A DNA stretch of 62,716 nucleotides, counting the filler, from Klebsormidium nitens (Eukaryota > Plantae > Klebsormidiophyceae): NCBI GenBank assembly GCA_000708835.1. It is 5 parts of 5 records of this genome, joined end to end, with 100 filler letters (N's around TTAATTAATTAA, not from the genome) between each part and the next. Parts side by side here need not be neighbours in the genome. Positions count along the whole stretch, not along the records: positions 34,673 to 40,916 come from DF238401.1; 4 more parts are not named here. One strand, written 5' to 3'. The notes under the pieces were generated by a model that did not search any database, was not told the origin of the DNA, and was given only the letters and a program-made list of their open reading frames with translations. This document shows positions 6,960-62,716 of the stretch, piece after piece (the first letter of the stretch is position 1; each line of letters begins with the position of its first letter). The position numbers and the translations under genes were made by a program.

Positions 6960-12810
<5,851 letters not shown>

Positions 12811-16400: not shown

Positions 16401-19400
16401 AACTTCGTCGACTTGGCGGCTTCAAGTGTGATCTTGCATCTTCTGCCAACAACGCTTTCGGTCCATGATAGCGCCAGCTGCTTCGCCATCATTCGTTCCC
16501 TTCCTTTCTGCTGATACCCAAACGCCTTAAGCACGTCGAGGGCCGAGATCAATTTCAATGATGGCTTAAATGAAACACAGGACCCGCACTTCTCTTGCAG
16601 TTGACTTTCGTTGCGCTCGTCCAAGTGTTCGCGGTTGTGATTTGGGTCCCCATCCCCGCCCTGATCGGGGTTGCCTACACAGACGGCCGTCTCGCCCCTA
16701 ACCCGGACCTGAAGCCCGGCCAAGCGTGCGGAGCAAATTATGACGTCACGTGCTGCGCTTGGCAGCCCAAAAGGTAAGCACGCCGGCACATGGTCTTCAT
16801 AAAGCTGGGTGTGGTTTGAAAATCCACAGAGCCGTGCGCTTTTACATCGAGCAATTCAAAAGCTTATTGGAATGGTCGAACCGTCAGAGCAGAATTTGAG
16901 ACGTGACAAGGTATTCGTGCCGGACACACGGATCCTCAGAGCGCCATTATTGTCGATCAGTGGGATCAACGGCTTCTAAAGCACATAGTTGAAAGCAGGA
17001 ACTTTCAAAGAACGTCCAAGAGGCAGTCACGTTTGTCCCCGATGGCAATCAGGCACCTGGTTTGCCCTTGTTTCGCCTTTACCTACGGCATCTTGAGCAG
17101 TGTCTGTTCCTGCCCGCAGCTGGTTCCCAGCGTATGCCGCCCTGGCCGGCGTCGTTGCGCTGTGGCTGGCGGCTCTCGTGAACCACATCCAAAGCTTCAC
17201 AGTCGCAGGCGTCATAGCCCAGGTGGGTTGAAGCATCACTCCCAAACGGTCTCTCCATTGTTCCTGTCGTAAATAAAGAATCGAAAAATACCACTCTTTT
17301 GCTCAATGGACGTCGAGGAGGCTTCCAGCAGGAGTGCCTGTCTCCGTTAATTGCTTTTCGTCGCCCTTCTGTAGGCCTGCCGTTGGATTCCGGCATCTGT
17401 TCAAGATGATGAAATCTGAGCACCGCAAAGTCCACGCGCATCTTCTCGTTCTTCTCACTTGAGCCATCCTGGTCGAAAAGAAAAACAAAGCTCGGTCCGA
17501 GATCTTTTTGATTTAACAAGCCCCCGCAGCAAGGGCGATTTCTTTGGTCAAAAAGCTTCGGCAGAAGAGTGAAACCGGTGTCTGATTGGATGATTGCTTT
17601 CTTGTTGCAGTGGTATTTCGCAGAGCTGGGCCACCGGAGGAGGGCTCCCATCTGCAAGAACCTTCGGTCAGTGCGCTTTCTCATACTCTTGTGCATCAGC
17701 AAATGTCTCGACACTTGAAGCTGAGAACTTCCAGTCCCTTCTTCCGAATCCTCGCCGAATCTTTCCGCGCTGGAAGGCTGAGAAGTAAGCATGACATAGG
17801 CGATTTTGAAAACAAGTTGTGCATGAATCTGGTCGGGACGAACCGGGGACTTGAGTTTAATCAGTGAAGGCGTAGAAACCGCCCGATCTTGCGACCGGCC
17901 CTTCGTAGGATGTACTGTCAAACTGATGCAGATTCCGCCCAATCTCTTGAAGTTTCGACCGTGGACAGGTTGAACGAAAAACGTCATACAACCAGTCAGC
18001 TCCTTCAAGAGGAAGCAAGGGTTGTTGCGGGCTATCAAATGTTGAGTCGGGACCACGACTCTGAACTTTCCAGAACTTTCCAGAACTTTCCAGAACTTGT
18101 TCATAAAGTGGAACGTTTTCCTCACTGAGTTGACTTTTCTCCTCTGGTCATGCTTGGGACGCCCTCCTTACTGTTCTCAGTCGAAGATTGATCTTGTGGC
18201 CAACTTTTCTTGTGGCAGGTACGCGGTGGGCCCGTCGCTGGGCACGCTCTGCCTCTCCAGCCTGGTCGTAACGGTCATCTCTCTCGTCAAAGACGCCCTG
18301 GAAAAGTGAGCGTCTTTCTTGCTTCCATTGTTGCCTTCGTCTGTCGCTTGCAAGTATCCGCCTTTTGCTAGCATTGAGAGTTGCCAGCCCGAGACTTGCC
18401 TTTGGCAGCTCCAGAAGGATTACATACGTCAGCCGCAAAAGTGCGCGAGGAGAGTTGAAAGCTCCTATGACTCCATGCATTGCGAAGGAAGAGTTGCAGG
18501 AGTTCGGTGCGAGGACCCAGGTTGTGCCATCGGAAAGCCCCACGCTGAACCCAACGTTGGTCTTAATTTTAGAAGCCAAAATTGGCGGCCGTAATACCTG
18601 CTTCATGAAGATCGTCAACGTTCCAGCCTGAGATTGCCCGTGACGTCTTCTGGATGGACAAGGGTCCAAGAGCAGCAGCAGCCGTATTCACTGCGAGACG
18701 AAATGCAAAAGCTAGAAACTTCTTATCCGCAGTGCGAAGCAGAAGCTGCGGGAGAGCGGCGGCGAGAACCTGCTGCTGTCGTGCGTCGTGTGCTGCTTCG
18801 AGGCGATCCTGTCGGGCATCGAGTTCGTGACCAAGTTCACCATCATCACCGTTGCCATTACCGGCGACAGCTTCTGTTCCGCCGCGGCGCGCACCTTCGT
18901 CCTCCTACGCCGGAATCTGCTGTCAAGCGTCACAGTTGATAGCGTCTCGGTGAGTGGGGATGACAACGAAACTTGGATCCAGGATGACCTCGTGTTTCTT
19001 ATGGGGGGGTGGGCGGGAACCGTGTGTTCCAATAAATCAGCGAGTGCGAACCTTTGGGGCTTCGGTAGTGTTGAAGCGAGTCTCAGTGGGCACTGGTTGT
19101 CGACAGCCGTGTAATTAACGACGGGCGGAAATGGGCCTCTTTCTATCTGAGCAACCGTACGTATGTGACATTATTGCACATTGCCGTATGTGCAGTGTTT
19201 GAAGCGGGAAGTGTGAAGCATCTTTTTTCCTGCTTAGACGACCCTGGAGGTTTCGAATGTCCCTTTTAGCCCGGTACTGGCAGATATGGAGAAAAAATCT
19301 GCTCCGCTCATAGTAAGTGTACTGTGAGTGGTGGCTGGGCGAGTCTGGGGATTTTGGACGCTTTACATAGTTGTTTTTATCCTCAACCATAACCAACACA

Positions 19401-21106: not shown

Positions 21107-21476
21107 AGGTAGCCCTGGGGTCGCAACCTCTTTGGCTCTGTCAAAAGCAACAATATGCGTGTGTACATATGATGTCATTTTTAGTCACGTTTCCCATTTT
21201 TGGAGTCACTCCTGCTCGAGTGTTGCGGTCGACCCGTCAAGAACAAGTAAAGGGGTATTGCTGTGGTATTTTTAGTATTAAGATCAAAGATAGCCGGACA
21301 AGGAGAGGAACATTGCATGTGCCATTTTTGAGTTTGAATAGATTGGAGGCCGTAGTCACATGTTATGTGTAAGAGCGTGGTCCGACTAAATTGCGTGGCA
21401 GCTAGGTTGGCCCGCATTGAGTTATGAAAGTGTATTTCTTGCAAACATGTATTATTTTGTATCTCAAAAGCACTTT

Positions 21477-21566
21477 CATGTCGCGCGTGCCGCAATGCAT
21501 TGCAATGCATCGCGGCACGCGCGACATGAGCTCGCACTCTGAGACATGTCTCAGAGTGCGAGCTCA
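21477..21566. repeat. Two abutting long palindromes (52 bp near-perfect, 40 bp perfect)
   Basis: 21477-21528 CATGTCGCGCGTGCCGC-AATGCATTGCAATGCATC-GCGGCACGCGCGACATG has one mismatch. 21527-21566 TGAGCTCGCACTCTGAGACA|TGTCTCAGAGTGCGAGCTCA is perfect. Confidence 0.95.
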
Positions 21567-28018: not shown

Positions 28019-28118
28019 NNNNNNNNNNNNNNNNNNNNNNNNNNNNNNNNNNNNNNNNNNNNTTAATTAATTAANNNNNNNNNNNNNNNNNNNNNNNNNN
28101 NNNNNNNNNNNNNNNNNN
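28019..28118. other. Assembly gap spacer (N44-TTAATTAATTAA-N44); identical spacers at 34573-34672, 40917-41016 and 60139-60238
   Basis: Four identical 100-bp blocks with a six-frame stop linker. Plain N gaps also occur at 38505-38958 and 61594-61614. Confidence 0.97.
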
Positions 28119-31752: not shown

Positions 31753-34421
31753 TCACTTCAGTGTGCTCTTGACAAAACTAAAGTGGCAATTGTAGTATGC
31801 CCTTGTTTCAACCACAAACGTATCAAAGGTTGACCAAAGATGGGAAGATTTTGAGGCGCCTCTTCCTTACCAACGCTTCTCACAAACACGGCTGTCTTAC
31901 CGGTGCTAAATCAACGAAAAGTAGGTTCTTTTCTGCCTAGGCTTGCTCTTTCTACATGTCCCGTACCGCTGCCAAGGAGGACAAGCAAATCAGAAAGATA
32001 TAATAGATCCTGCTAAGTCTTTTCAGTCGTGCAGTCCTGCTTGGAATTCCAGACAAGGCAGCTGAAAAAGGTGTTCTTTGAGATTTTTCCAGGACTTTCA
32101 AGCCTACGGTCTGAAGATTGGTACTCTGAAGGCCTCTTCCCTCCGTTCCCAGGAAGGCCACGTCTTGCAGTGTAAAGAGCACTGGTAACATTCACTGGGT
32201 CGCTATCAACCAAAGGCGATGCTGACGTTCAACGGTGACTGCTGCATATGCACAGTCCACAGTCTTCTTCGATTTCAGCAGAACAGCTGCACCAGTCCAA
32301 TTCTCCACGGGTGTAACTTTACATCAGAAGGTCAGAGGAAGGTTCTCGATGACATTTGATGGCGACGACTGCTGTATACGTCGTTATTTCTCTCCCCCAA
32401 CTGCGAACACACGGCTGCATTCAATCAGCCTGGTTGGCCTGCTAGTATACCGTATCACAAGGTCAAAGGAAAGGGTTTCGAGAAAGTCAGAGTGTTGCTG
32501 CGAAACACCTGAAAGTGGCAACTGAAAGCAAGTATCGTCAAGAAGAAAGTACGGAGTCACTAAAGAGAGACGAATCGAAAAGCAGATTCGAAGAAGCGGA
32601 TGCCCTGTACCATTGGATCGGATGACGTGACAGACTGCAAGGAGCCAATCATTGAGCCGTACAGGGCCATCCCCCTAGCTAGCCTTGCGACTTCGAAAGC
32701 AACTGCGTACCTTATCTACTTCCAAAAGCGATGTGACGTGCGAGTAGGAAGAACATGACTGTATTGTCTTGAACAGCTGATTTATGCTCCCTTTATCACG
32801 GCGACCATGTCTATATCGCAGGTTTTGTAGATGTGGAACCAGTCGAAGCTGGCCTCTTAACTAAGGAAAGCATAGTGGATAGAGAGGACACCTGCAACAC
32901 GTTCTAGCTCGCTTCTGCAAATCAAGACACGCTCGACTATTTGGACATGTGTCGGCGCGATCGAGCAGGAACACAAAGGTTATCGTAAAGAGGACACCAG
33001 GAAAGTATTTACAACGAGCTTTGGCTGTACAAGTGCAATCGCGCTCTCTTGGCATACCCCATTTCATATACAAGTAGGTTCGAAGAGTGAAAGTCAAGGC
33101 AAGAGCTGCGCCAGAGCCATAAACTACATCTAGTGATCGGAGTTGCCCTCCGGCTTCCCAGCTGCGGCTTGCTGTCTGCTCCCTGGAAAACGCTTCTGCT
33201 TCGCGAGACTCTTTTTCGCTCTCATTTATGCAATCAACTCGCGCACTTGATCGGCACATGTAATCGATGCGGATGGGGCAATGGAGTCTTGCCTCAATTG
33301 CGATGCGGCTCTAGCTTTAAGCTGCAGCTGCAGAGGATCGGTGACGTAATCAATCATGGCACGAGTGCTTCTGACATCTAGCACGCACCTCTTAGTTCAG
33401 TGCAGCGTTGGGTGTGAAAATCCGCGAAATATTAGCGCGGCCGCGCAAGACAGCTTTAGGATGCGGCCCCGGGGCAAGCCTCGGGCGGCAGCGGCCGCGT
33501 TCGCGGCCTGTAAAACCTCCGAGTCTGTCAAGGGGACACGCGGCCGCGGTGCGACATCGTCAACACCGTACGTGGCGCGTTTCGAAGCTGCGCGCGGCGC
33601 GGCTGCAATCACGATGTCAGTAGCGAGGTTTGGATTTTTGAGGAGTAACTTGAGGTTGACTTTTCTGTCTTCTAGCCAAATCTTCCTCACTTCTCATTCT
33701 TGCAGATTTGCAGCACATGCGCTTCCGTGAGGCATTTCTGACGCTCTGGATTTGCGATTACGGGCGAAAGCTACAGCGAAGGTTTCTGCAAGAGAGAGAA
33801 GCAACGTTCTGGACCGCCGAGAGATTCTGAGATTGAGAGAGAAGACCTGGAAATAGAGTCTGAGAGAGAAGAGTTTTGAGACGCGAGAGGTTCCTCAGAC
33901 GAGAGAGAGAAGAGCAGAGCACACTCCTGCAGGGGTCTGCGAGAGAGCGAAACGATTAAGAGCAGGCTTGGTTTTCTCGATTTGAGGTCCACAACGTTTG
34001 TTCAGTTATTTGAGGCAGTGACTTTGCGACTCTTCTTGGTGTTGTTCTTTCCTATTCTCCCTCTTTACTCCTGTGTCCTCGCCTTCTTGCTTTGCCAGTC
34101 AAACATCTTCCTTTCCATCACTAGATACTGGCACGGAGAATCTGTTCTACTCTGCTTGTTTGTCCCATTGGGTTGATAGAAAGTGAAAGGAACAAGGGCA
34201 AGATCAACACCACAAAACAGAAAGAACAAATCACAAAAAGCAAAAAACCAAAAAAACCAAAAAAATTAGAAACAAAGAAAATACAAAACATCTCTTCCTC
34301 TTTGCTTCATTCCACGAGAAACCTGTGCTCTTCCTTTCCCATGCCTGTGCTTTTTTGAGAGTAAACGCCTATTAAATACTTCAACTTTTGCATTCAGCCA
34401 GAGATTTGTTCATCACACACT

Positions 34422-34572
34422 ATGGCTTTCTCTGCTGTCTTCTGCGCCGTAGGCTCTCTTGCGTGTGCTGGCCTGTCCGCCCTTTCCCGTCCATCCGTGT
34501 GGGTGAACGGCAAGCCGCTGACGAGGACAGCCATCCTCGACACCGGCGCGATGCCATTGCTGATTGGGAAGA
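34422..34572 (+). mobile_element. Retropepsin-like aspartic protease fragment (retroelement-derived), cut by a gap
   Basis: PSVWVNGKPLTRTAILDTGAMPLLIGK has the hydrophobic-DTG motif, in the same context as the protease at 60239-60400 (FLINGVALDWLTIDTGCESVII). Confidence 0.6.
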
Positions 34573-35047
34573 NNNNNNNNNNNNNNNNNNNNNNNNNNNN
34601 NNNNNNNNNNNNNNNNTTAATTAATTAANNNNNNNNNNNNNNNNNNNNNNNNNNNNNNNNNNNNNNNNNNNNGGACGTCTTCTCGACATGGCTCTTGTGA
34701 TTTCATCAAGCGTAAAGAAGCAAGTGCCTTGCGAGGTGCGAGTCTCGAGACTCCTCGACTGAATATGGAGTCTCTTCGTGAGTCCTAACTAATCAGTCTT
34801 TAGGAAGAAGGCAAGAAGACGCAATTTTTCTGAGAGGCGCTCTTGCTGAGGTGATCCCAAGACGTGCTGAGAAGCTTCGCATGGTTTCCGCACATGTGAA
34901 GTAGATAGGCAGCGTGTGACCCTGTCCAACCGTCACAACAGATAGGCTTGGCTGCATCGAACGGCGAAGCCGAACACAACTTATCCTGAACGGTGACATC
35001 GGCTCACTGAAGCCGATCCATCCGGGATATTACGCCTTCTTGCAGAC

Positions 35048-35158
35048 AGCCACACAGTGCGTCGTTAAGACGTAACCGCTACCGTTTCGCTAACTCGCGG
35101 TCAACGAAATCCTGTCGAGAACGAGGTTAGGCTTACAGTCGTAATCGTTACAGTACCG
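35048..35158 (+). repeat. Left copy of a >=110-bp inverted repeat (partner 40804-40916)
   Basis: Manual alignment to the reverse complement of 40804-40916 shows 8 substitutions (all transitions) and one 2-nt indel. Confidence 0.95.
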
Positions 35159-35196
35159 AAAAGCCTCTCAGGGAGCTCGGCAACATTCCGATACCA

Positions 35197-36945
35197 GTGT
35201 CGTTATTGGCCAATCCTGTACGTTTGCACCCGACTCATGACTGGAGTACCTTCCCGAATAACATAAGAACGCTGTCGCAGGATGCTGTGAAAGCACAAAT
35301 GAATCTTATTCGGCGCAACGTGACGCAGCAGTGCTATCGAGGCATGGCTGCAATCTTCTCAGCCATGTATCTCGTCGACGGACGCATCATTGCTGAGGGC
35401 AAATGCTTTCATTATTGGAACGGTCGCAGATGGATAATCGATAACGCGTTCCATATACAAACCGTATTCAGCAACCATATGGCTCGTATCATGACTTGGT
35501 ACTCGAAACAGAGATTGAATGCTTTCAAGCGGGAGATTTGCGTGCATATGAGAGGCTCTGCAACAGAGCAAAACGTTTTATCAACGCCAGAACCAGTCCT
35601 TCCAGATTGGGCATTGAAGCCAACGACCGAAGAAGAAAGAAAAGCATGCAGCACTGCATGGAGAATGGTCAACAAAACGTATCCATTTCCAACGAAGAGG
35701 GATCTGGTGGATCTGACACGGGGATCCGAGGTTCGTGTATGTCTTGAATTTGTCATGAACTCCTTGCAGGCTTCCCAACCTCTCAGCGAGATGATGGATA
35801 TTGCCAATCCGTTCTTGTTTGCCTGTCAGACGGGCGTCATTGATACCGAGACCGGAGAGTTGCTCACATTTCATCCTGCTCACCTGTGTTCGCGCGCGTC
35901 AAAAGCAACTTTTCGTGGAATGCCAAAGGCCGGAAGCCGATTCGAGAGGTTCCTGTTTGATTGCTTCAACGATGACAGAGAAGTACTCGACTGGTATCAG
36001 CTCTTCTGCGGCTATTGTATGATGGCAGATACGAGTGAACAATTGTTCCTCGTCAAGCAAGGCAATGGAGCTAATGGAAAATCGTTGACAAAGCTGGCAA
36101 GTCTCGAAGCTCTAGGCAATTACGTTGTCGTTATGTCAGAAGACTGCATCATTGAGGCTGGTAAACGGTCGGCTGGCGCGGCTTCGAGCCACATCATGGC
36201 TCTTCGGGGCGGATGGCTTGCTGAAACAGACGAGTCGCGAGAGAAAGCAGTTCTAAATGAGGCCGCAATGAAAGCCCTATCAAGCGGGGGGACCACTACA
36301 GGGCGCGAGCTGCATAGCAGACAAGAAACATTTGAGCTCACCGTGAAAACCGTCCTCAACACGAACTACAAAACAATTCTTCAGAACGTATCCTACTGTG
36401 TCACTCGACGCTTGGCACTACTCCCGATCTTGGTCACTTTCTTAACTCCTGAAACACTTGATTTTAGCAAACCACGCCAAAAGCTTATCGATACTACTCT
36501 TGAAGCATACCGGAAAAGCAACCAAGGTCGAGATGAAGGTCTATCATGGTAAACACAAGGAGCAAAGTGCTATCATGAACTCAAGCGAACGAATCCCAAC
36601 ACGCTACCACTTATGCGCAGACCTCGTGTCATGGAAGAAGCTGTTAGAGCATACATCAACGACTCGGACATTGTGAGGCGATGGATCGTCGATTGTCTCG
36701 AATTCGAAGATATTCAACCGGGAGAAAGAGCGACATGGCACTTGGCCGTTGGCGAACGGCTCGGAGAGGTGTTTCGAGCTTGATTGAAAGAAGAAGACTT
36801 GACTAGCTCTCTGTCGGCGACGGCGCTGAAAAAGCGCATCTTGGAGTATGCTGAAGGCAAGAATCGGGTGGTTGCAGACGGCCGATTCACTGATAGCCAA
36901 GTCAATCCCGAGGACAGTTTAAAGGCCTTTCGGGGGTTCGACTGA
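35197..36945 (+). pseudogene. Intronless D5/P4-family primase-associated SF3 helicase with two in-frame stops
   Basis: D5_N-like FHYWNGRRW and LFACQTGVIDTETGELL, Walker A GNGANGKS, Walker B region LAETDES, motif C TVLNTNYK, Arg finger VTRRLALLP. The frame continues past TAA 36550-36552 and TGA 36781-36783 (EEAVRAYINDSDIVRRWIVDCLE...) to TGA 36943-36945. Confidence 0.9.
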
Positions 36946-37291
36946 AATCCGGCTATGAATTTCATGTGTAAAGGTAGGTGACGACGATTCGAGCGAGCGC
37001 TTACATGCTATAGACTTTGCAAGCTGATTGCTTGGTAAGATATATTTTCCAGGTCTAAGTTATGGGCTTCTGGTCTGCAGACCAAAAGTCTGGTCTGCGG
37101 CCCCATCTAGGCACGATTATGCCACTGGCACAAGTACCTTTCTCGTTTGCACCAAAGTGATGTAGCTTCTTATGATGATAACGACCATACGTATTATGCA
37201 CATCAATGCTGTTGGAACATGCCTGCCGCATATGATCAAACGTACAAGTCATGGTAACTTTTCAATTGATGTCTTTGCTTTAATAGGGTGT

Positions 37292-40200
37292 TTAGTACAT
37301 CAAGAGTCGTTGTCGTACAGCCGGACTCCACGTGTCCGCTCTGCCCGCAATGCGCAGCTTTGGTTCGTCAACCCGTGCTGGATCGCTATTCCTTCCGCTA
37401 ACTAGATTAGCGAGGATGACCATGAACGCTACGAGGCTGCTATACCACGCTTGCATCTTGAAGGTGACGAGGAACGCGTTGCACGACTCCACTGCCGACG
37501 TATTGACCCATCGCACAGAGTCGTAGTAGTCTGCATATAATACGGGGATTGAATTAGTTCATCATAGGAAAGCCTTGAGACATGGCGTTGTAGAAGAATG
37601 CTGCATAGACATGCACTCTTAGAAGGCAGTCAAAAGTTGCCTCCCTTTTCTATAGAAGAGCAAGGGCGTTTTTGACTGAGGCACTTCAAACCCGTTTTTC
37701 TGCAAACGCTATGACTTGGCGCCTTCTTCGACTCAAGAATTGGTACCATCTTACAAATATGTCAGGGTCTTACCCGGATTGTAAGAAGGGCCGCATTTGT
37801 GCGCCTCCGCAGAAGTGCGTTGGAAGTGGAATCTGCAAAGATGAAGCATGGATTGATAAATAAAAAGGTACAAAGAGTTCACAGTTGAAGTGACTTGCGA
37901 CGCTTGCATGGCAACGGCGCAGAGGATCATTAAAGCTGTATTCAACAAGAGCCGCCCCTTGGCTTGCGCAAATCTTTAGACCTTACCTATCGACCAGGAA
38001 CCAAACGTTCGCAAAGAACGCTGGCTCTCTCCGCATCGCGTAGGCACGCAGCTTGCAGGCGTTGTCGTAGACCAGGTTTGAGGGGAGATCTTTCCGATTG
38101 AGGCGAGTGTACAGAACGGTCAATGGGTCTCGCGGCGACCCCCGCGGAGCATGACGTGGAAGCCACAGATGACACAATGAGGGCACGAAAAGACAAAGCC
38201 GCCCTTCGTGTGCCGTTGCAGACGCTTATTCTTCTTTAACCCGCTTTCCAGAGCGACCTTGGCATCGAACTCTCCAACGGTGAGCCCGCTCCGACACCGA
38301 TGCTCCTCGTCGTGCTCGCGAGACCTACCAAGGTCGTCTTCGAACGGTTCGTATTGCGGCAGAGGGCGTTTCTGTTTCCATCCTGGAATCGGATAGCAAC
38401 CAAGCTCTCGTTGCTCGCGGCAGTAAGGATGGTCCCGGGGAAGAGAGCCGCGCTCCGATCCGTCCGCCTCGAGACCGAGCCTGTCGTTCAACAGGATCCG
38501 TTCTNNNNNNNNNNNNNNNNNNNNNNNNNNNNNNNNNNNNNNNNNNNNNNNNNNNNNNNNNNNNNNNNNNNNNNNNNNNNNNNNNNNNNNNNNNNNNNNN
38601 NNNNNNNNNNNNNNNNNNNNNNNNNNNNNNNNNNNNNNNNNNNNNNNNNNNNNNNNNNNNNNNNNNNNNNNNNNNNNNNNNNNNNNNNNNNNNNNNNNNN
38701 NNNNNNNNNNNNNNNNNNNNNNNNNNNNNNNNNNNNNNNNNNNNNNNNNNNNNNNNNNNNNNNNNNNNNNNNNNNNNNNNNNNNNNNNNNNNNNNNNNNN
38801 NNNNNNNNNNNNNNNNNNNNNNNNNNNNNNNNNNNNNNNNNNNNNNNNNNNNNNNNNNNNNNNNNNNNNNNNNNNNNNNNNNNNNNNNNNNNNNNNNNNN
38901 NNNNNNNNNNNNNNNNNNNNNNNNNNNNNNNNNNNNNNNNNNNNNNNNNNNNNNNNNNTCCCCGCGCAAACAGCGTCAACCGATAAAGATGGTGTAGTGC
39001 CGGATGGAGAAATCGGGGGTAGCATTTACCGTAATGGTCCAATAGCCGGCGTAGGATTGGGGAATGCTCGGAAAGCACGACCCTGTCCTCATCGTTTGCG
39101 GCTCCTCCGAGGAGCAGCTTACGGACCACCCCCAAGGCTTTCCCGTGTTGGATGAGATTGGAGTCATCCGAGAGCAAATATGGGGCACCTAGAGTGTAGA
39201 GCAGTTCCGCCCATCTGCGGGGGCAGCGGGGAGGCCATTGGGGCTCGTCTTGCATCGCTTCTCTCTCGATGCCGTCGAGCAGCTCGAGCACGGCTTTGTT
39301 CTTCGACCGAACCTGGCCAACCTGATGAGCCGGGATCTGCCGGCGCCAGTGCAAGAACACTAGGTCTGCATCAGCATCGGCTGGATCCTGGACAAAGCCC
39401 GTGACGACTTGCACACATCGTCCCTAGCGAGCGCAATCTGCACAAAGACGCCAGATCAGGTCAGCTGCTCGACGCGAGCGTGCATGTGCACTGCAAATCT
39501 TTCTTTCGGATCTAACAAAAGGCTGAAATACTACAGTCAAAAGTCGCCTCCATTCCTCTAGAATATGACGGGCAACTTTTGACTCAACCCGTTTACCAGA
39601 GGGATGTGTTGCAACGCGCTGACAATCCGAACAAGGTTGCCGGAGGAAAAGACCATGCTTGCAACTAGATCAAAGTCATAGCAGAGCGCTGGCATGTAGC
39701 CCTTCCGGCAAATCCTTAGGTAGAAGTATTGCCTCTTGGCAAACACCCGGCCACCACAGTCAGAACGGCCCTCCTTCTCTCTATAAAATGAGGGGCGCCT
39801 TTTGACTGGCCTCTCTCTAAATCCGGCCTGCCGCAGCTGAGAGTGGGCCGGAGTCAAAAGAGTCCTCCTTTCTTCTAAGAAATCATTATGGGCGCCTTTT
39901 GACTGGCCTCTCTCAAATATCCGGCCTACCGCAAGCAAAAGACGGGCCGGAGTCGAAACGTACCAGAAGCTCCTTGTATTCTCGTGTACTCAGCGTCTTC
40001 CCTAGCTCTGGGTCAGCAGCATGGTGTCCGCTGAACCGCGCTAGAAGCGTCCGAAGCTCGGGTTGACGCATGAGACGCTTTTTCAGCCCCCCTCCCGAAA
40101 GAGACGCCGCCAGGTAGTTGCTTCTAGCCTCCATGACTTTCCGTACGTTGACTTCATCGGAGCCTTGACTTGGCGCTGTGAAGGGCCGAAGCAAGGCGGC

Positions 40201-40830
40201 ATTGGTTCCGGCAAGCCCGCCCTTCTGACGCGTGCTGTCAGCGCAAGCAAGCCCCGCAATGCCGTCGCATAGAAGCACCTTCACAAGAAAGATGATCCAG
40301 TGCTTTTCAAAGGGTGAACTTCATAAATCTTAGGTGCCCACGCTCTAAGGACGTCAGCAATAAGCGACCGCAAAAAGTTGGTGCCAGAGCTTGGACACTT
40401 TGAACACGGCGGCAGGATTGACTCGGGATGTGATGACGTCATCAAAGATGCCCAAGAATTTCAATGGTGGTTGGAAGAATCAAGTGTCTTCATGGATTGT
40501 GGACAAGGGACTTGAGTGATGCAAAACGCACCTCTGGATGTGGTCCGCAGAGGCTACAACACTCCATGATCTGCCGCCCGAACAGCTTGAAGAAGCCAAG
40601 GCTCGCCTTACGCCAACACTCTTCCGACAAGAGGGTCGCGCTGGGATTGTATTGACGCCGTACCGCACTCCCAGCTGCAATGAGCGGGCTGAAAGCAGCT
40701 CCCGATTTCTGAACGTATCGTAGCAGTATCTGACAAGCGACCTGCGTGACGACCACCGCGCGTGTCCACGCGTATAGTCCGAGCGCCTCTCCATTGAAGT
40801 GAACGGTATTGTAACGATTACGACTGGTTA
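37292..40830 (-). mobile_element. KDZ-type (Kyakuja-Dileera-Zisupton / HMGXB3-like) transposase gene, spliced, with a frameshift and a gap
   Basis: Exon pieces in order: VHFNGEALGLYAWT...CCSLCGPHPEV, KVLLCDG, HTKGGFVFSCPHCVICGFHVMLRG/SPRDPLTVLYTRL...LVYDNACKLRAYAMRREPAFFANVWFLVDR|FHFQRT...HKCGPSYNP|..VNTSAVESCNAFL. These are the CxxCG-P-DG, CPH, YDxAC, DxFH and SxxEQxN-like motifs of this superfamily. GT-AG introns. A -1 shift lies in the C-run at ~38140 and 38505-38958 is N. Confidence 0.8.
39793..39958. repeat. Two-copy 97-bp-period direct repeat with internal hairpin, in a transposase intron
   Basis: GGGCGCCTTTTTGACTGGCCTCTCTC...GGGCCGGAGTCAAAA at 39793 and GGGCGCCTTTTGACTGGCCTCTCTC...GGGCCGGAGTCGAAA at 39890. 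In each unit TTTTGACT..GGCC can pair with GGCC..AGTCAAAA. Confidence 0.85.
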
Positions 40831-40916
40831 AGCCTAACCTCGTTCTCGACAGGATTTCGTTGACCGCGGATTAGCGAAACGGCGGTGGTTACGTCTTAAC
40901 GACGCACTGCGTAGCT
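40804..40916 (-). repeat. Right copy of the inverted repeat; homology runs to the edge of the gap
   Basis: The reverse complement AGCTACGCAGTGCGTCGTTAAGACG... matches 35048 AGCCACACAGTGCGTCGTTAAGACG... Confidence 0.95.
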
Positions 40917-41016
40917 NNNNNNNNNNNNNNNNNNNNNNNNNNNNNNNNNNNNNNNNNNNNTTAATTAATTAANNNNNNNNNNNNNNNNNNNNNNNNNNNN
41001 NNNNNNNNNNNNNNNN

Positions 41017-43210
41017 CCTATATGGTCACCAAACATTAAGGTGCGCGGGATACAGTCTTCGGTACATGCACGTAGAATTGCCAGCGGGTAAGCGGTACCG
41101 TACCGTTCTACCGGTAGTCAGCGTGTCAGTCAGTCAGACTACTGAGAGTTTTAGTCCGGAGTGGGTCAGTCGGTTAGTCAGTCAGGCTGGTTAGGCTTAA
41201 ATTAGAGTATCCGCGAGCAGTCAGCCGGTCAGTCAGCCAGGCTAGTTAAGCCTACAGGGAAACAGTCAGCCGGTCAGTCAGTCAGGTCGGTTAGTCCGCC
41301 CAGTGACTGAAGGTCCAGTCAGCCGGTCAGTCAGTCAGGCTGCTCACGGCGATCAAGACAGCGGCCACTTAGTCAGTCAGTCAGTTAGTCAGCCAATGGT
41401 CTAGTGGTCAAGGGGACAGTGGGTTATAGGAACCGGAACACTTGAAATCTCCCCTGTGGACTAGATTAGCGTGGCGGTAGATAATGCTGACTTACCAATC
41501 TAGTCTACTTATCACAAGTAAGCTATTGGATGATTCGTACACAGCCAGCATGCCTAGTCCATGGAGATGAGCTAGAGCATGAAAAGAATTGATAGTGGCA
41601 CCGATGAACGGCGCAACTCGTGCTACTTTAATGCTTGCTACTGAGTACGAGAGTACGTTGCAATGATCTGGACTCCGGGAGGCCCGTCGCATGCAGAGGC
41701 GTCACGGTGTCGTAAATTGCGGACGAAGGTCGCGGGAAGTCGCAAAAAATTACGGAACGTTGCGGAGCATTGCAAGCGCATCTAAACAGATAACAGGCAG
41801 AGAATTTGCCGGGGGCTGAAAACATGTGTTGCAAACATGCAAAGATCTGTAAGGCTGCGATGAAAGTTGCGAAGGCCGCAAGACAAAGTTGTGGACCTGG
41901 CAATATTTCGTTGTATAAAGTCGCATAAGGTTCCTATTAAGATCAGTCGCAGGAGGTCACCCCTTAAGTCGCAGGCAACTTTGGCAACCTCCCGGGGAGT
42001 CCGGGGTCCAGGGTTGGCCTGACAGGCCTAGATTTCATAATTCAGGCATGTTGTTTGAATTTCATGGATTGGCTTTAATACGTACTGCAATATTCACAAC
42101 CAGCATTGCCTGAGAACTCGGAACGACCATCATCCCATCACTGATCAGTAGCGCCGCGCGCGCGTATATAGCAGATATGATAGCAGTGCACTAGCAGTCA
42201 TGTGCATTATTGTCCGTACTAGCCTCAGCATGCCTTACCGCCAAGGGAATGCGCAGCAATGTTGGTGTGAAAACTTGATTTCAGTGAGTCATAGCCTGGG
42301 GTTTCACCCGGGGCCCTGAAAGTGTATTGTTCATCTCAAAATGAGTGTAATTTGCTTTTCCCCACTTGAAGTCACCAAGAAGACTGTTTCTACGTTTACG
42401 CTTTCACTCCAAGTTGACATGAGTCGGGGTCCCATTTAGTTTCAAACAATTCACACTGAGGTGAATTCCCAGCTTGAATTGGCGGTACGGTGATAGTACT
42501 AGATACTAGTAGTACATACTACACTTTTTGGTACTTACCAGTAACCATATAGCTAGAAATAACTGGTAGTAGAATGGATACTGTTGTGATGACTCACGAG
42601 TGACGACTCACGAGGTCACAAGGCTCTGCCAATGACATCATGTCAGTACGAGTCGTACGACGTCACTACGGACCGTTGACCCTTTCGTTGACCTGCATGG
42701 TGCAAAAGTCAAAAGCCGGGGCCCCATGCAGGGGCGGGCCAGGGCCCCGGGGCCCGGGCCCAGGCTTGAGCACCTCAGGAGTCGGTACAGGCAGTTTTAA
42801 GAAATTAGTAGGGGCGGCGCCTCGGGGCGTGCCGCGCCGTCGAGGGCCGCGCTTTTGCGCCCCTGGCTTCTGGCCGGGGGCGATACAAGCTGCCCGGGGG
42901 CGTTCTGTGCCCGGTTTTGAACCCCCGCCTGCGCCAGTGCAGCGCCACTCTTAATACGGTAATGTTTAAACAGTAAAAACAGAATCGTTCGTATGAATAT
43001 TCAGGAATCAGGATCCAGGTGGCAGTTGGACGGGTCACGACTCACGGGCCGGGACTTTAGATAGGCACCCGGGAGACGGGTGGGGTTAGTATGAAGGTTA
43101 GGGTGAGTTTGGGTGCGGAGCAGGAGATTATCTGAGTTCAGATTTTTGGTTTGTTTGGTCGGGAATTGTGAATCTTAAGTCACTCACCCGTTAAGTCACC
43201 CCGGAGTTAC
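41017..43210. mobile_element. Non-coding repeat-rich block, probable transposon terminus or relic
   Basis: No credible ORF. Contains AGTC arrays, recurring GTCGCA motifs (41690-41975), GACTCACGAG repeats (42590-42615, ~43038) and GGGGCCCC-rich tracts (42715-42765). No TIR/TSD pair found. Confidence 0.35.
41115..41395 (+). repeat. (AGTC)n-based degenerate minisatellite
   Basis: CAGTCAGCCGGTCAGTCAG(T/C)CAGG occurs three times (~41218, ~41262, ~41316) among further AGTC runs. Confidence 0.85.
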
Positions 43211-60238: not shown

Positions 60239-61593
60239 CCCAGAATTGATAACTCAGGACCTAACCCCGCTTTCCTTATTAACGGTGTGGCCCTGGATTG
60301 GTTAACAATTGACACTGGCTGTGAGAGCGTAATTATCTCTAACTGGACAGCCAAACGATTAGGAATAAATTCAGAGATGCGGCAGCGAAAAGCCATCAGT
60401 CTTATCACAGCAGATGCAGTCACCACAGCACCTGTTGACAGGATATGGGACACAGTTGAAATCTCGATTAACCCAGGGACTTCTGCGGCAACAACGGTTC
60501 AGGTTAAACTAACCATTGTTCCGTCACAGACCCGCGAAACTCTAATTGGGATGAGTGTAATTGGGCGGATTGGGCTTACACCCAATCCGTATACCCAAAC
60601 ACTCACATATTACCCCAGGTGGTGGGAAGAAAACTCCACCACCGCAGAGTTGCCCTCTATTTTCAACGTTGACCTACTCAACGCAGGCCTCAGCGCCGCC
60701 ACTAGCTCTCGCTTAACTAATGTCACACTTTCCTACGCAGGACGACTCGTGACGGCCCCACGGGCCCCCAGACCGCCTCCAGCCTTTGTACAGCTATGTA
60801 CAGGGTCAGTCCCAGCGCCCCAGACGGCGCGGGAGGAGCGAGCCGTAAGGCTCCAGCTAGGGTTTAGGGATCAGTTAGACACGCAGAGTGTTATTACTAG
60901 CTTCCAGCGTAGCATTCGTAGTTTGACCGAGCCACCAGAGCCGGCCATCCTCTTAGCTTTTAGATACGGATCTCCATTGGATCCAAATTTTGTGCACATA
61001 CATGAACAAACATCTGTTAACAGCATAGGCATAGTCATAATTGAATTGTGTTCTGGACTATGCGCGGCAACAGAAGCGCTCGTTCGCGCAGGTGTAAAAG
61101 TCCGCAAACTTTATGCATGTGAGACAGATCCAATGTGCCGTTGTGTGGCCCAACAACGATTAGTCACACTCACCCAATTGTTTCCGCATCTAATTAATGC
61201 CGACGCTATTATACACAGCCATGAGCAGCTACCTCATGACATCGCTGAAATTACAGAACAACATATATCCGAGCTTGAACCGCCGGACATCGTAATTGCC
61301 GGATTTCCGTGTCAAGGATTTTCATCCGCAGCCACAAAGCCGCTTGGCCTTCGTGACACACGGACAAGCTTATTCTACACATGCGTAGAAATAGTACGAT
61401 GGATCTACCATCAACATGGGCCATGTATATGGCTGTTTGAAAATGTTGACGCTACCGACCATCGCGACACGCAGGTCGCACATGAATACAATCACATAGT
61501 GAAGGGCATATTAGGCCATGGAGTGGCCTTTGATGCCGTTGCAGTCGGCTCATACGCTCACCGCCACAGACGGTTCTGGACCAACGGCAGTGC
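60239..61593 (+). mobile_element. Retrotransposon polyprotein fragment: aspartic protease plus C5 cytosine DNA methyltransferase (copy 1)
   Basis: One intronless open frame between gaps. Protease IDTGCESVII...LIGMSVI. Methyltransferase motif I IELCSGL, motif II ACETD, motif IV DIVIAGFPCQGFS (catalytic Cys), motif VI LFENV, motif VIII AHRHRRFWTN. Confidence 0.92.
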
Positions 61594-61614
61594 TNNNNNN
61601 NNNNNNNNNNNNNN

Positions 61615-62716
61615 CAACAACGGTCCAGGTTAAACTAACCATTGTTCCGTCACAGACCCGCGAAACTCTAATTGGGATGAGTGTGATTGGGCGGATTGGG
61701 CTTACACCCAATCCGTATACCCAAACACTCACATATTACCCAAGGTGGTGGGAAGAAAACTCCACCACCGCAGAGTTGCCCTCTATTTTCAACGTTGACC
61801 TACTCAACGCAAGCCTCAGCGCCGCCACTAGCTCTCGTTTAACTAATGTCACGCTTTCCTACGCAGGACGAGTGACGGCCCCACGGGCCCCCAGACCGCC
61901 TGCAGCCTTTGTACAGCTCTGTACGGGACCAGTCCCAGCGCCCCAGACAGCGCGGGAGGAGCGAGCCGTAAGGCTCCAGCTAGAGTTTAGGGATCAGTTA
62001 GACACGCAGAGTGTTATTACTAGCTTCCAGCGTAGCATTCGTGGTTTAACCAAGCCACCAGAGCCGGCCATCCTTTTAGCTTCTAGATACGGATCTCCAT
62101 TGGATCCAGCTTTTGTGGACATACATGAACAAACAGCTGTTAACAGCATAGGCATAGTCATAATTGAACTGTGTTCTGGATTATGCGCGGCGACAGAAGC
62201 GCTCGTTCGCGCAGGAGTAAAAGTCCGCAAACTTTATGCATGTGAGACAGATCCAATGTGCCGTTGTGTGGCCCAACAACGATTAGTCACACTCACCCAA
62301 TTGTTTCCGCATCTAATCAATGCCGACGCTATTATACACAGCCATGAGCAGCTACCTCATGACATCGATGAAATTACAAAGCAACATATATCTGAGCTTG
62401 AACTGCCGGACATCGTAATTGCCGGATTTCCGTGTCAAGGATTTTCATCCGCAGCCACAAAGCCGCTTGGCCTTCGTGACACACGGACAAGCTTATTCTA
62501 CACATGCGTAGAAATAGTACGATGGATCTACCATCAACATGGGCCATGTATATGGCTGTTTGAAAATGTTGACGCTACCGACCATCGCGACCCGCAGGTC
62601 GCACACGAATACAATCACATAGTGAAGGGCATATTAGGCCATGGAGTGGCCTTTGATGCCGTTGCAGTCGGCTCATACGCTCACCGCCACAGACGCTTCT
62701 GGACCAACGGCATGCC
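61615..62716 (+). mobile_element. Second copy of the protease-C-terminus plus DNA methyltransferase frame, open to the window end
   Basis: Colinear with 60490-61593. Same motifs intact, one 3-nt indel and a few dozen substitutions, no stop in frame. Confidence 0.9.

Follow-up and report, generated by a model that had tools for sequence, protein, structure and literature searches.

The KDZ transposases, to which the Zisupton type belongs, were reportedly defined by Iyer et al. in 2014. The canonical Zisupton layout is described as SWIM, CxC4 and KDZ (PMC11343200), the transposases act by cut-and-paste between terminal inverted repeats (TIRs) with 8-bp target site duplications (TSDs), and the cargo on record is TET/JBP or other genes (PMC12730594); the elements can be 10–30 kb long and carry accessory genes and nested transposable element (TE) insertions, and their transposases are often pseudogenised (PMC12477816). 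We analysed a 62,716-nucleotide stretch from the alga Klebsormidium nitens (assembly GCA_000708835.1; hereafter the window), and in particular a scaffold of 6,244 bases at 34673–40916 (DF238401.1) on which a plus-strand primase-helicase gene faces a minus-strand KDZ-type transposase gene. The reading toward which we lean is that this scaffold holds the broken middle of a Zisupton-type (KDZ) transposon lineage that carries a viral-type primase-polymerase-helicase facing its transposase. The locus resembles known Zisupton/KDZ elements (KDZ1 and KDZx1 of Cryptococcus, the giant KDZ elements of Ectocarpus and Chlamydomonas) in its KDZ-type transposase, nested insertions and pseudogenisation, and would do so in its estimated size, but differs in its cargo, a primase-helicase here versus TET/JBP or other genes there.

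Other described systems combine some of the same parts. Polinton-like viruses (PLVs), along with virophages and with Polintons, are integrated elements in which an archaeo-eukaryotic primase (AEP) or TVpol joined to a superfamily 3 (SF3) helicase is the predicted replicase (PMC4642659, PMC10120064). Teratorn, a piggyBac element joined to a whole ~180-kb herpesvirus genome, including primase and helicase (PMC6431247), shares with our locus a DDE transposase accompanied by viral replication genes, but brings a whole virus where one viral-type gene is visible here, and the "Plavaka giant repeats" of Amoebidium carry tyrosine recombinases (PMC11244446). P4-type phage or plasmid proteins and the African swine fever virus (ASFV) C962R PrimPol have the same order of Prim-Pol/AEP, zinc finger, D5_N and SF3, although identity is 13–28% and the proteins studied here belong to a family of several copies that likely resides in the nuclear genome of an alga. 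AcademH pairs a transposase with a helicase, and in this it and the Helitrons are alike to our locus; to our knowledge, AcademH and Helitron helicases are SF2 or SF1 enzymes with no primase-polymerase, unlike the SF3 helicase fused to Prim-Pol described here. Neither PMC12730594 nor PMC12477816 contains the word "primase", and literature searches for Zisupton with primase and helicase, or for Klebsormidium with KDZ and transposase, found no paper (subscription papers and Repbase lay outside the search, and Repbase may hold a Klebsormidium entry for the pairing). Broader searching likewise returned no such pairing, on which the available sections of PMC9297572 and PMC12344493 are silent.

The plus-strand frame matches Pfam D5_N (E 6.7e-10) and contains the SF3 Walker A (36061–36084), Walker B (36217–36234), motif C (36355–36369) and arginine finger (36400–36414). 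It is 90% identical (536/594) to residues 365–957 of its closest relative, the intact 968-aa database protein P0050, whose residue 365 aligns at 35158; the first ~364 of 968 residues are absent from the window copy, whose frame is further broken by stops at 36550 and 36781 and by a frameshift near 36902. Upstream of this, P0050 has a Prim-Pol domain and a zinc finger that ends in CFGxEC directly before an EKPL motif, and it is at EKPL that the window copy begins. The missing Prim-Pol domain is present, together with D5_N, in intact relatives by Pfam (PF09250): in all nine full-length relatives (874–971 aa), Walker A is conserved along with primase motifs DxD, H and DGR, and the first zinc-finger motif is found in 9/9 and the second in 8/9. 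Because these full-length relatives were called as single open reading frames (ORFs), the gene is likely intronless. The named close relatives of both proteins all come from Klebsormidium nitens, the helicase having only one that is named to species, and JGI helicase clusters of 13 and 16 members, many of them fragments, mark a multi-copy family. Third codon positions account for 21 of the 35 best-supported variant sites listed in the helicase frame (P = 0.001); as far as sequence can tell, intact copies, conserved motifs and this third-position bias indicate selection for primase-helicase function.

An AlphaFold model of P0050 built from 64 sequences (predicted local distance difference test 86, predicted template-modelling score 0.76) has as its best fold match the Bodo saltans virus primase-helicase (E 6e-38, 15% identity), with further matches to Harvfovirus, virophage and phage primase-helicases and to ASFV PrimPol (PDB 8iqi, E 9e-25). 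The primase-helicase also matches PHROG 1156 (E 1e-53) and TIGR01613, the latter at 107.7 bits, below the cut-off of 108.7. Identity is below 28% to phage primases and 11–20% by structure to named viral proteins, and look-alikes in the Atlas are phage-rich Prim-Pol/D5_N clusters. From the fold matches to giant viruses and phages, the low identities and the phage-rich look-alike clusters, the donor was viral-type, not pinned to one virus. More distant helicase relatives at 25–33% (P0120, P0122, P0127, P0129–P0131, P0134 and P0135) occur in JGI, Logan and ENA; where sequence was read they repeat the Prim-Pol/zinc-finger/D5 layout, and their genomic context may reveal the donor element. Searches for related loci gave one locus from 100 candidates in metagenomes (L001, 27% identity), none in viral collections (0/66, 0/1, 0/3 and 0/18 candidates) and none in GTDB (0/79 candidates).

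The minus-strand gene is 88–100% identical over seven stretches to the database protein P0020, with residues 689–840 to the right of an inner assembly gap and 911–1031 to its left, so that the pieces are colinear. Its first ~483 residues are missing, and its frame shifts near 39416 and again near 38140; the window copy is inactive in both genes. The convergence of a plus-strand D5/SF3 helicase with a minus-strand KDZ-type transposase, which a first-pass annotation of this DNA had proposed, is borne out by D5_N, the SF3 motifs and the match to P0020. Transposase matches number 29 at 60–94% identity, 18 of them named K. nitens; P0030 was removed as not independent, as it has 270 of 309 15-mers in common with the window's own frames. 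Although the window's transposase pieces on their own gave no Pfam match, 18 long relatives (68–94% identity) contain CxC4 in 14/18, KDZ (PF18758) in 9/18 and SWIM in 1/18, with a best CxC4 E of 2.3e-6, below the curated cut-off, and with P0041 exceeding the curated KDZ cut-off (33.3 vs. 26.6). SWIM, in a part of the protein absent from the window, also appears in the UniRef names of relatives. Contigs assembled from public run X6 cover only exons of the transposase and skip 37833–37986, an intron, exactly; this run, listed as "DNA?", behaves like RNA of a relative, which is therefore likely spliced. X6 and X7 have next to no helicase cover and are uninformative on its expression. Four related ~52-bp hairpins (AGTCAAAA...TTTTGACT) lie in two of the transposase introns at 37627–37678, 39534–39585, 39757–39808 and 39851–39905 (fold z −3.2, −4.7, −3.9 and −1.9), and may represent either a very small mobile repeat or a structure of the family's introns.

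The pairing is found again elsewhere. P0001, the only close annotated helicase (KFL_011090010), and the transposase P0119 (KFL_011090020) have adjacent tags on one 13,723-bp scaffold and are 68% and 75% identical to the window's proteins; the chance of their sharing such a scaffold is 0.3–3%. Two JGI helicase/transposase pairs have equal longest contigs, P0002/P0032 (91,093) and P0004/P0042 (52,642), near-equal values such as 29,644 vs. 29,676 not being counted as pairs. Among public-run contigs, one of single-copy-like depth (19.6/19.1), present in X1 and X3 (a single sample), connects the helicase end at 36954 with a transposase exon at 37800, in the order seen in the window. Another, diverged contig crosses 37034–37133 and joins 37292. 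The four linked transposases fall into three separate starred subfamilies of a coarse tree made from one 121-column exon and 45 rows (44 of the 53 database proteins, without P0030, plus the window; rows outside it had fewer than 95 aligned residues or no match). Pair identities of helicase and transposase co-vary (r = 0.84), with both proteins showing their greatest divergence in the same pair. We consider it probable that the pairing recurs as a unit. The first-pass proposal of a KDZ transposon with its own D5 helicase is supported in part, in that both genes appear together at other loci.

Several observations weigh against the transposon reading. No element ends, TIR or TSD were seen in the 6.2-kb scaffold, and the true ends would lie off it. 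Transposase Pfam scores mostly fall below curated cut-offs, that for KDZ being passed by 1/21. The co-variation of pair identities is not significant in a Mantel test (4/24 permutations). In the very incomplete lists of JGI longest contigs, 32/34 helicase contigs have no transposase match and 16/18 transposase contigs no helicase match, and the two JGI matches are expected by chance at 1–22%, depending on TE clustering. Annotated K. nitens tags number 25 for the transposase vs. 2 for the helicase, a count tempered by the window's own helicase, which shows that such pseudogenes escape annotation. None of the tags found on the scaffold of P0133, a more distant helicase, is that of a transposase. 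Orientation is given by the contig joints alone, which may come from the P0001/P0119 locus. Finally, a cluster of GGTCT/AGACC motifs with a hairpin in the spacer at 37045–37110 (4 motifs in 331 bp vs. 1.8 per kb window-wide; fold z −2.9) could be a transposon end between the genes, or else an origin or a terminator.

These partnerless records, unequal tag counts and the spacer cluster, in which contigs have loose ends at 37053, 37089 and 37110, would also be accounted for if the KDZ transposon and the element with the primase-helicase were independent repeat families, brought side by side here and at a few other places by nesting, target preference or TE-rich neighbourhoods, with the right end of the transposon in the spacer. 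The linked transposases are moreover scattered on the tree, with 4 changes vs. 3.9 when shuffled, the linkage of unlabelled rows not being known. However, spacer cover is continuous at gene-like depth throughout in three runs of two studies (X1, X2 and X5), the loose ends look, by eye, like the window's own helicase-side sequence, and the diverged contig crosses this region; the sole close annotated helicase adjoins a transposase, and the lists behind the partnerless counts are the incomplete ones noted above. We regard separate families as doubtful, though a serious alternative.

A recurring unit could also be viral, an endogenous Polinton-like or small giant-virus-related element that replicates with the primase-helicase and has adopted a KDZ transposase for integration, in a fusion like that of Teratorn, with capsid genes beyond the scaffold. 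The intronless viral-type enzyme, whose fold is most like those of the primase-helicases of Bodo saltans virus, Harvfovirus and virophages, would suit such an element; endogenous PLVs and virophages often have a primase-helicase plus integrase and occur in streptophytes (PMC10120064), and core genes of nucleocytoplasmic large DNA viruses are reported in Klebsormidium (PMC5294986). However, the integrases described in the available sections of the PLV and virophage literature are of the tyrosine recombinase or rve type (PMC10120064, PMC4642659), whereas the integrase-like gene in this scaffold is of the KDZ type and is interrupted by four or more spliceosomal introns, which viral integrase genes are not known to have. 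PLVs, virophages and Polintons are like our locus in being integrated elements with a primase-SF3 helicase, but are defined by major and minor capsid proteins, a packaging ATPase and rve or tyrosine recombinase; no capsid or ATPase gene appeared among the 18 scaffold frames scanned (by Pfam only). With the enzyme's low identity to named viral proteins and phage primases added, a virus-like element seems unlikely, and the greater part of the case for a recurring unit rests with a transposon.

A 5.9-kb stretch of the scaffold is bracketed by an inverted repeat (35048–35158 and 40804–40916; 111/113 bases, 8 transitions, 0 transversions, one 2-nt indel) to which the window holds no further long match. 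The first-pass annotation had described this repeat, at least 110 bp long and reaching the right boundary, exactly, and took it for the TIRs of a 5.9-kb element. However, each arm cuts into a coding sequence. On the left, the arm ends at 35152, where the breakpoint falls between the CFGxEC and EKPL motifs of helicase relatives, and on the right it begins at 40810, the exact stop of the P0020 alignment (residue 484, in the CxC4 region); the 5.9-kb figure is the distance between two insertions. The arms' place inside both coding sequences also argues against a MuDR-like pair of convergent genes driven from TIRs. Public-run contigs on 34673–35090 and 40734–40916 have a summed depth of 1–4.5e5, against an interior median of 130 (X1) and 199 (X5), a ratio of flanks to interior of 940–1960; summed contig depth is not a copy number and serves only for this roughly thousand-fold contrast.

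Both arms instead look like ends of a long terminal repeat (LTR). Past 34937, where the repeat ends in CGTCACA, a TGGTATCAGAG-type motif, presumably the initiator-tRNA primer-binding site (PBS) of plant LTR retrotransposons, appears as a loose end in eight X5 contigs (agreement 0.74). Nine X1 contigs (5+3+1) lead from the 34937 end through further sequence to the 40805–40810 start, as would be expected of retrotransposon interiors or inter-copy DNA, and from these joints we infer that repeat start and end belong to one family. With TG...CA ends that form a short terminal inversion, the PBS-like motif and very high copy, the flanking repeat is likely an LTR retrotransposon, and in our reading the scaffold holds a single LTR family in triplicate, the first copy in the helicase gene, the second nested in the first and the third in the transposase gene. 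Searches with repeat patterns gave no locus with the repeat, and hence no gag-pol interior, in viral contigs, GTDB genomes or plasmids. A reversed internal fragment of the transposase was rejected as source of the repeat, as there is no match to P0020 beyond the breakpoint.

Just inside the repeat ends, 5/6 bases also match, which would occur by chance at ~0.5% (assessed post hoc). Together with the reality of the repeat, this match favours TIRs; the six bases are nonetheless native codons on both sides, the arms disrupt conserved coding sequence and remove Prim-Pol and zinc finger from one gene and SWIM from the other, and the depth contrast of three orders of magnitude and the PBS-like neighbour are at odds with TIRs, which refutes the arms as ancestral TIRs and leaves that model very improbable. 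Two opposed LTR insertions at contig ends can mimic TIRs. The TIR claim falls, and the gene pairing probably stands. Both LTR-like insertions precede a nearly identical hexamer, RTACCG (35153–35158 and 40804–40809), an unexplained likeness that may be target preference or chance.

The scaffold consists of two contigs around an inner gap, and it ends at 34673 and 40916 because of the high-copy repeat at both ends. The first-pass annotation saw in a gap-bounded contig what long TIRs would produce; a high-copy repeat does sit at the ends, but the outer gaps are linkers, likely artificial joins of unrelated scaffolds, and the inner gap had been overlooked. The inner gap and high-copy ends, and the fact that none of the public-run contigs listed spans the whole stretch, would be compatible with a chimeric scaffold in which assembly itself created either the pairing or the repeat. 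Yet helicase and the last ~270 transposase codons lie on a single contig (34673–38504), the transposase is colinear with P0020 across the gap, and the pairing is found again at another tagged locus, so that we hold a chimera to be the least credible of the explanations considered.

Table 1. Features of the scaffold and its borders, in window coordinates
Feature	Position	Strand	Basis or remark
N44-TTAATTAATTAA-N44 linker	34573..34672	.	Pattern also at 28019, 40917 and 60139 (4x in window)
3′ part of very high-copy LTR-like repeat, end ...CCGTCACA, nested in the repeat to its right	34673..34937	+	Summed depth ~2.6e5 (X1), 4.5e5 (X5)
5′ part of LTR-like repeat (TGTAACG at 35152 on − strand), left arm, inserted in primase-helicase gene	34938..35152	−	Sequence, depth, breakpoint
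Primase-helicase pseudogene, 5′-truncated, intronless: D5_N, SF3 ATPase, C-terminal part	35153..36971	+	P0050, Pfam, TIGR01613, motifs
Spacer between the two stop codons, 320 bp, multi-copy	36972..37291	.	All bins covered in X1, X2, X5
CxC4-KDZ (Zisupton-type) transposase pseudogene, 5′-truncated	37292..40809	−	Colinear with P0020 residues 484–1181
Transposase exons	40809-40532, 40278-39964, 39437-gap, gap-37987, 37832-37774, 37530-37292	−	P0020 alignment
Transposase introns, GT-AG	40531-40279, 39963-39438, 37986-37833, 37773-37531	−	Splice sites
DDE motifs (likely catalytic)	CDG 40269, YDNAC 38069, VESCN 37492	−	Predicted
Assembly gap, 454 N	38505..38958	.	Within transposase; P0020 residues 841–910 absent, join colinear
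5′ end of LTR-like repeat (TGTAACG...), right arm, inserted in CxC4 coding sequence	40810..40916	+	Summed depth 1.1–1.9e5 in X1, X3, X5
N44-TTAATTAATTAA-N44 linker	40917..41016	.	Repeated linker pattern

If the scaffold is the middle of a transposon, its intact partners would be a 930–970-aa protein with Prim-Pol, zinc finger, D5_N and SF3 and a spliced SWIM-CxC4-KDZ transposase, as found in relatives, and an element with a 2.9-kb helicase gene, the spacer and a transposase of ~1200–1300 codons plus introns should measure at least ~10 kb. By analogy with Zisupton, the transposase would move it by cut-and-paste with 8-bp TSDs. A replicon of the phage, PLV or giant-virus type is the likely source from which the primase-helicase was taken up, and the gene would since have been kept under selection. 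The predicted activities of the Prim-Pol-SF3 protein are DNA unwinding, priming and extension, and the most plausible benefit would be that it copies excised or donor element DNA and so raises copy number. Given linkage, we infer that copying of element DNA by the enzyme is plausible, if short of probable, the alternative being a passive or host-serving cargo. The two high-copy insertions would then have hit both genes and left this copy dead, with the assembly breaking at them and mimicking TIRs.

Because intact relatives carry the primase-polymerase domain, the self-copying idea is more plausible than the truncated copy showed. A self-synthesising Zisupton lineage, in which a eukaryotic DDE transposon without a capsid would use a primase-polymerase/SF3 helicase of its own to copy its DNA after excision, nevertheless strikes us as speculative, as does the retention of such a lineage across at least three transposase subfamilies in Klebsormidium. 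If true, it would be a third route of self-synthesis beside Polintons (protein-primed polymerase B and rve) and casposons (PolB and Cas1). One review predicts that a primase and nucleic-acid-primed polymerase joined to an integrase could yield new kinds of transposon (PMC6431247). A KDZ transposase that moves together with a Prim-Pol-SF3 enzyme would be a small, concrete example of this and, in an algal lineage that is sister to land plants, might stand midway between transposons of the cut-and-paste kind and DNA viruses that integrate. As there are intact relatives without introns, the enzyme is open to assay; were it cargo only, the known KDZ cargo would still gain a replication enzyme.

The window contains further features of interest. 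A long ORF at 60239–62714 has aspartyl protease and C5 DNA methylase domains and fits the described KnitGypsy-Dnmt3 retrotransposon (PMC5890265). It is present twice (60489–61589 and 61615–62712, 96.5% identical, with a 20-N gap between), a doubling that may be assembly overlap. A short frame at 34365–34572, ending at the linker, has an ILDTGA motif that resembles retroelement aspartic protease and gave no BLASTP match to the 60239 ORF. The next scaffold starts with a CAGTCAGT-rich low-complexity repeat (41100–41400), which is unrelated to the transposon finding because a linker intervenes. Ordinary spliced host genes are represented by exons of a serine carboxypeptidase S10 gene (7924–11368, minus strand) and of a choline-transporter-like gene (18716–19111, plus strand), and two adjacent near-perfect palindromes of 54 and 40 bp lie at 21476–21566 (fold z −11.4).

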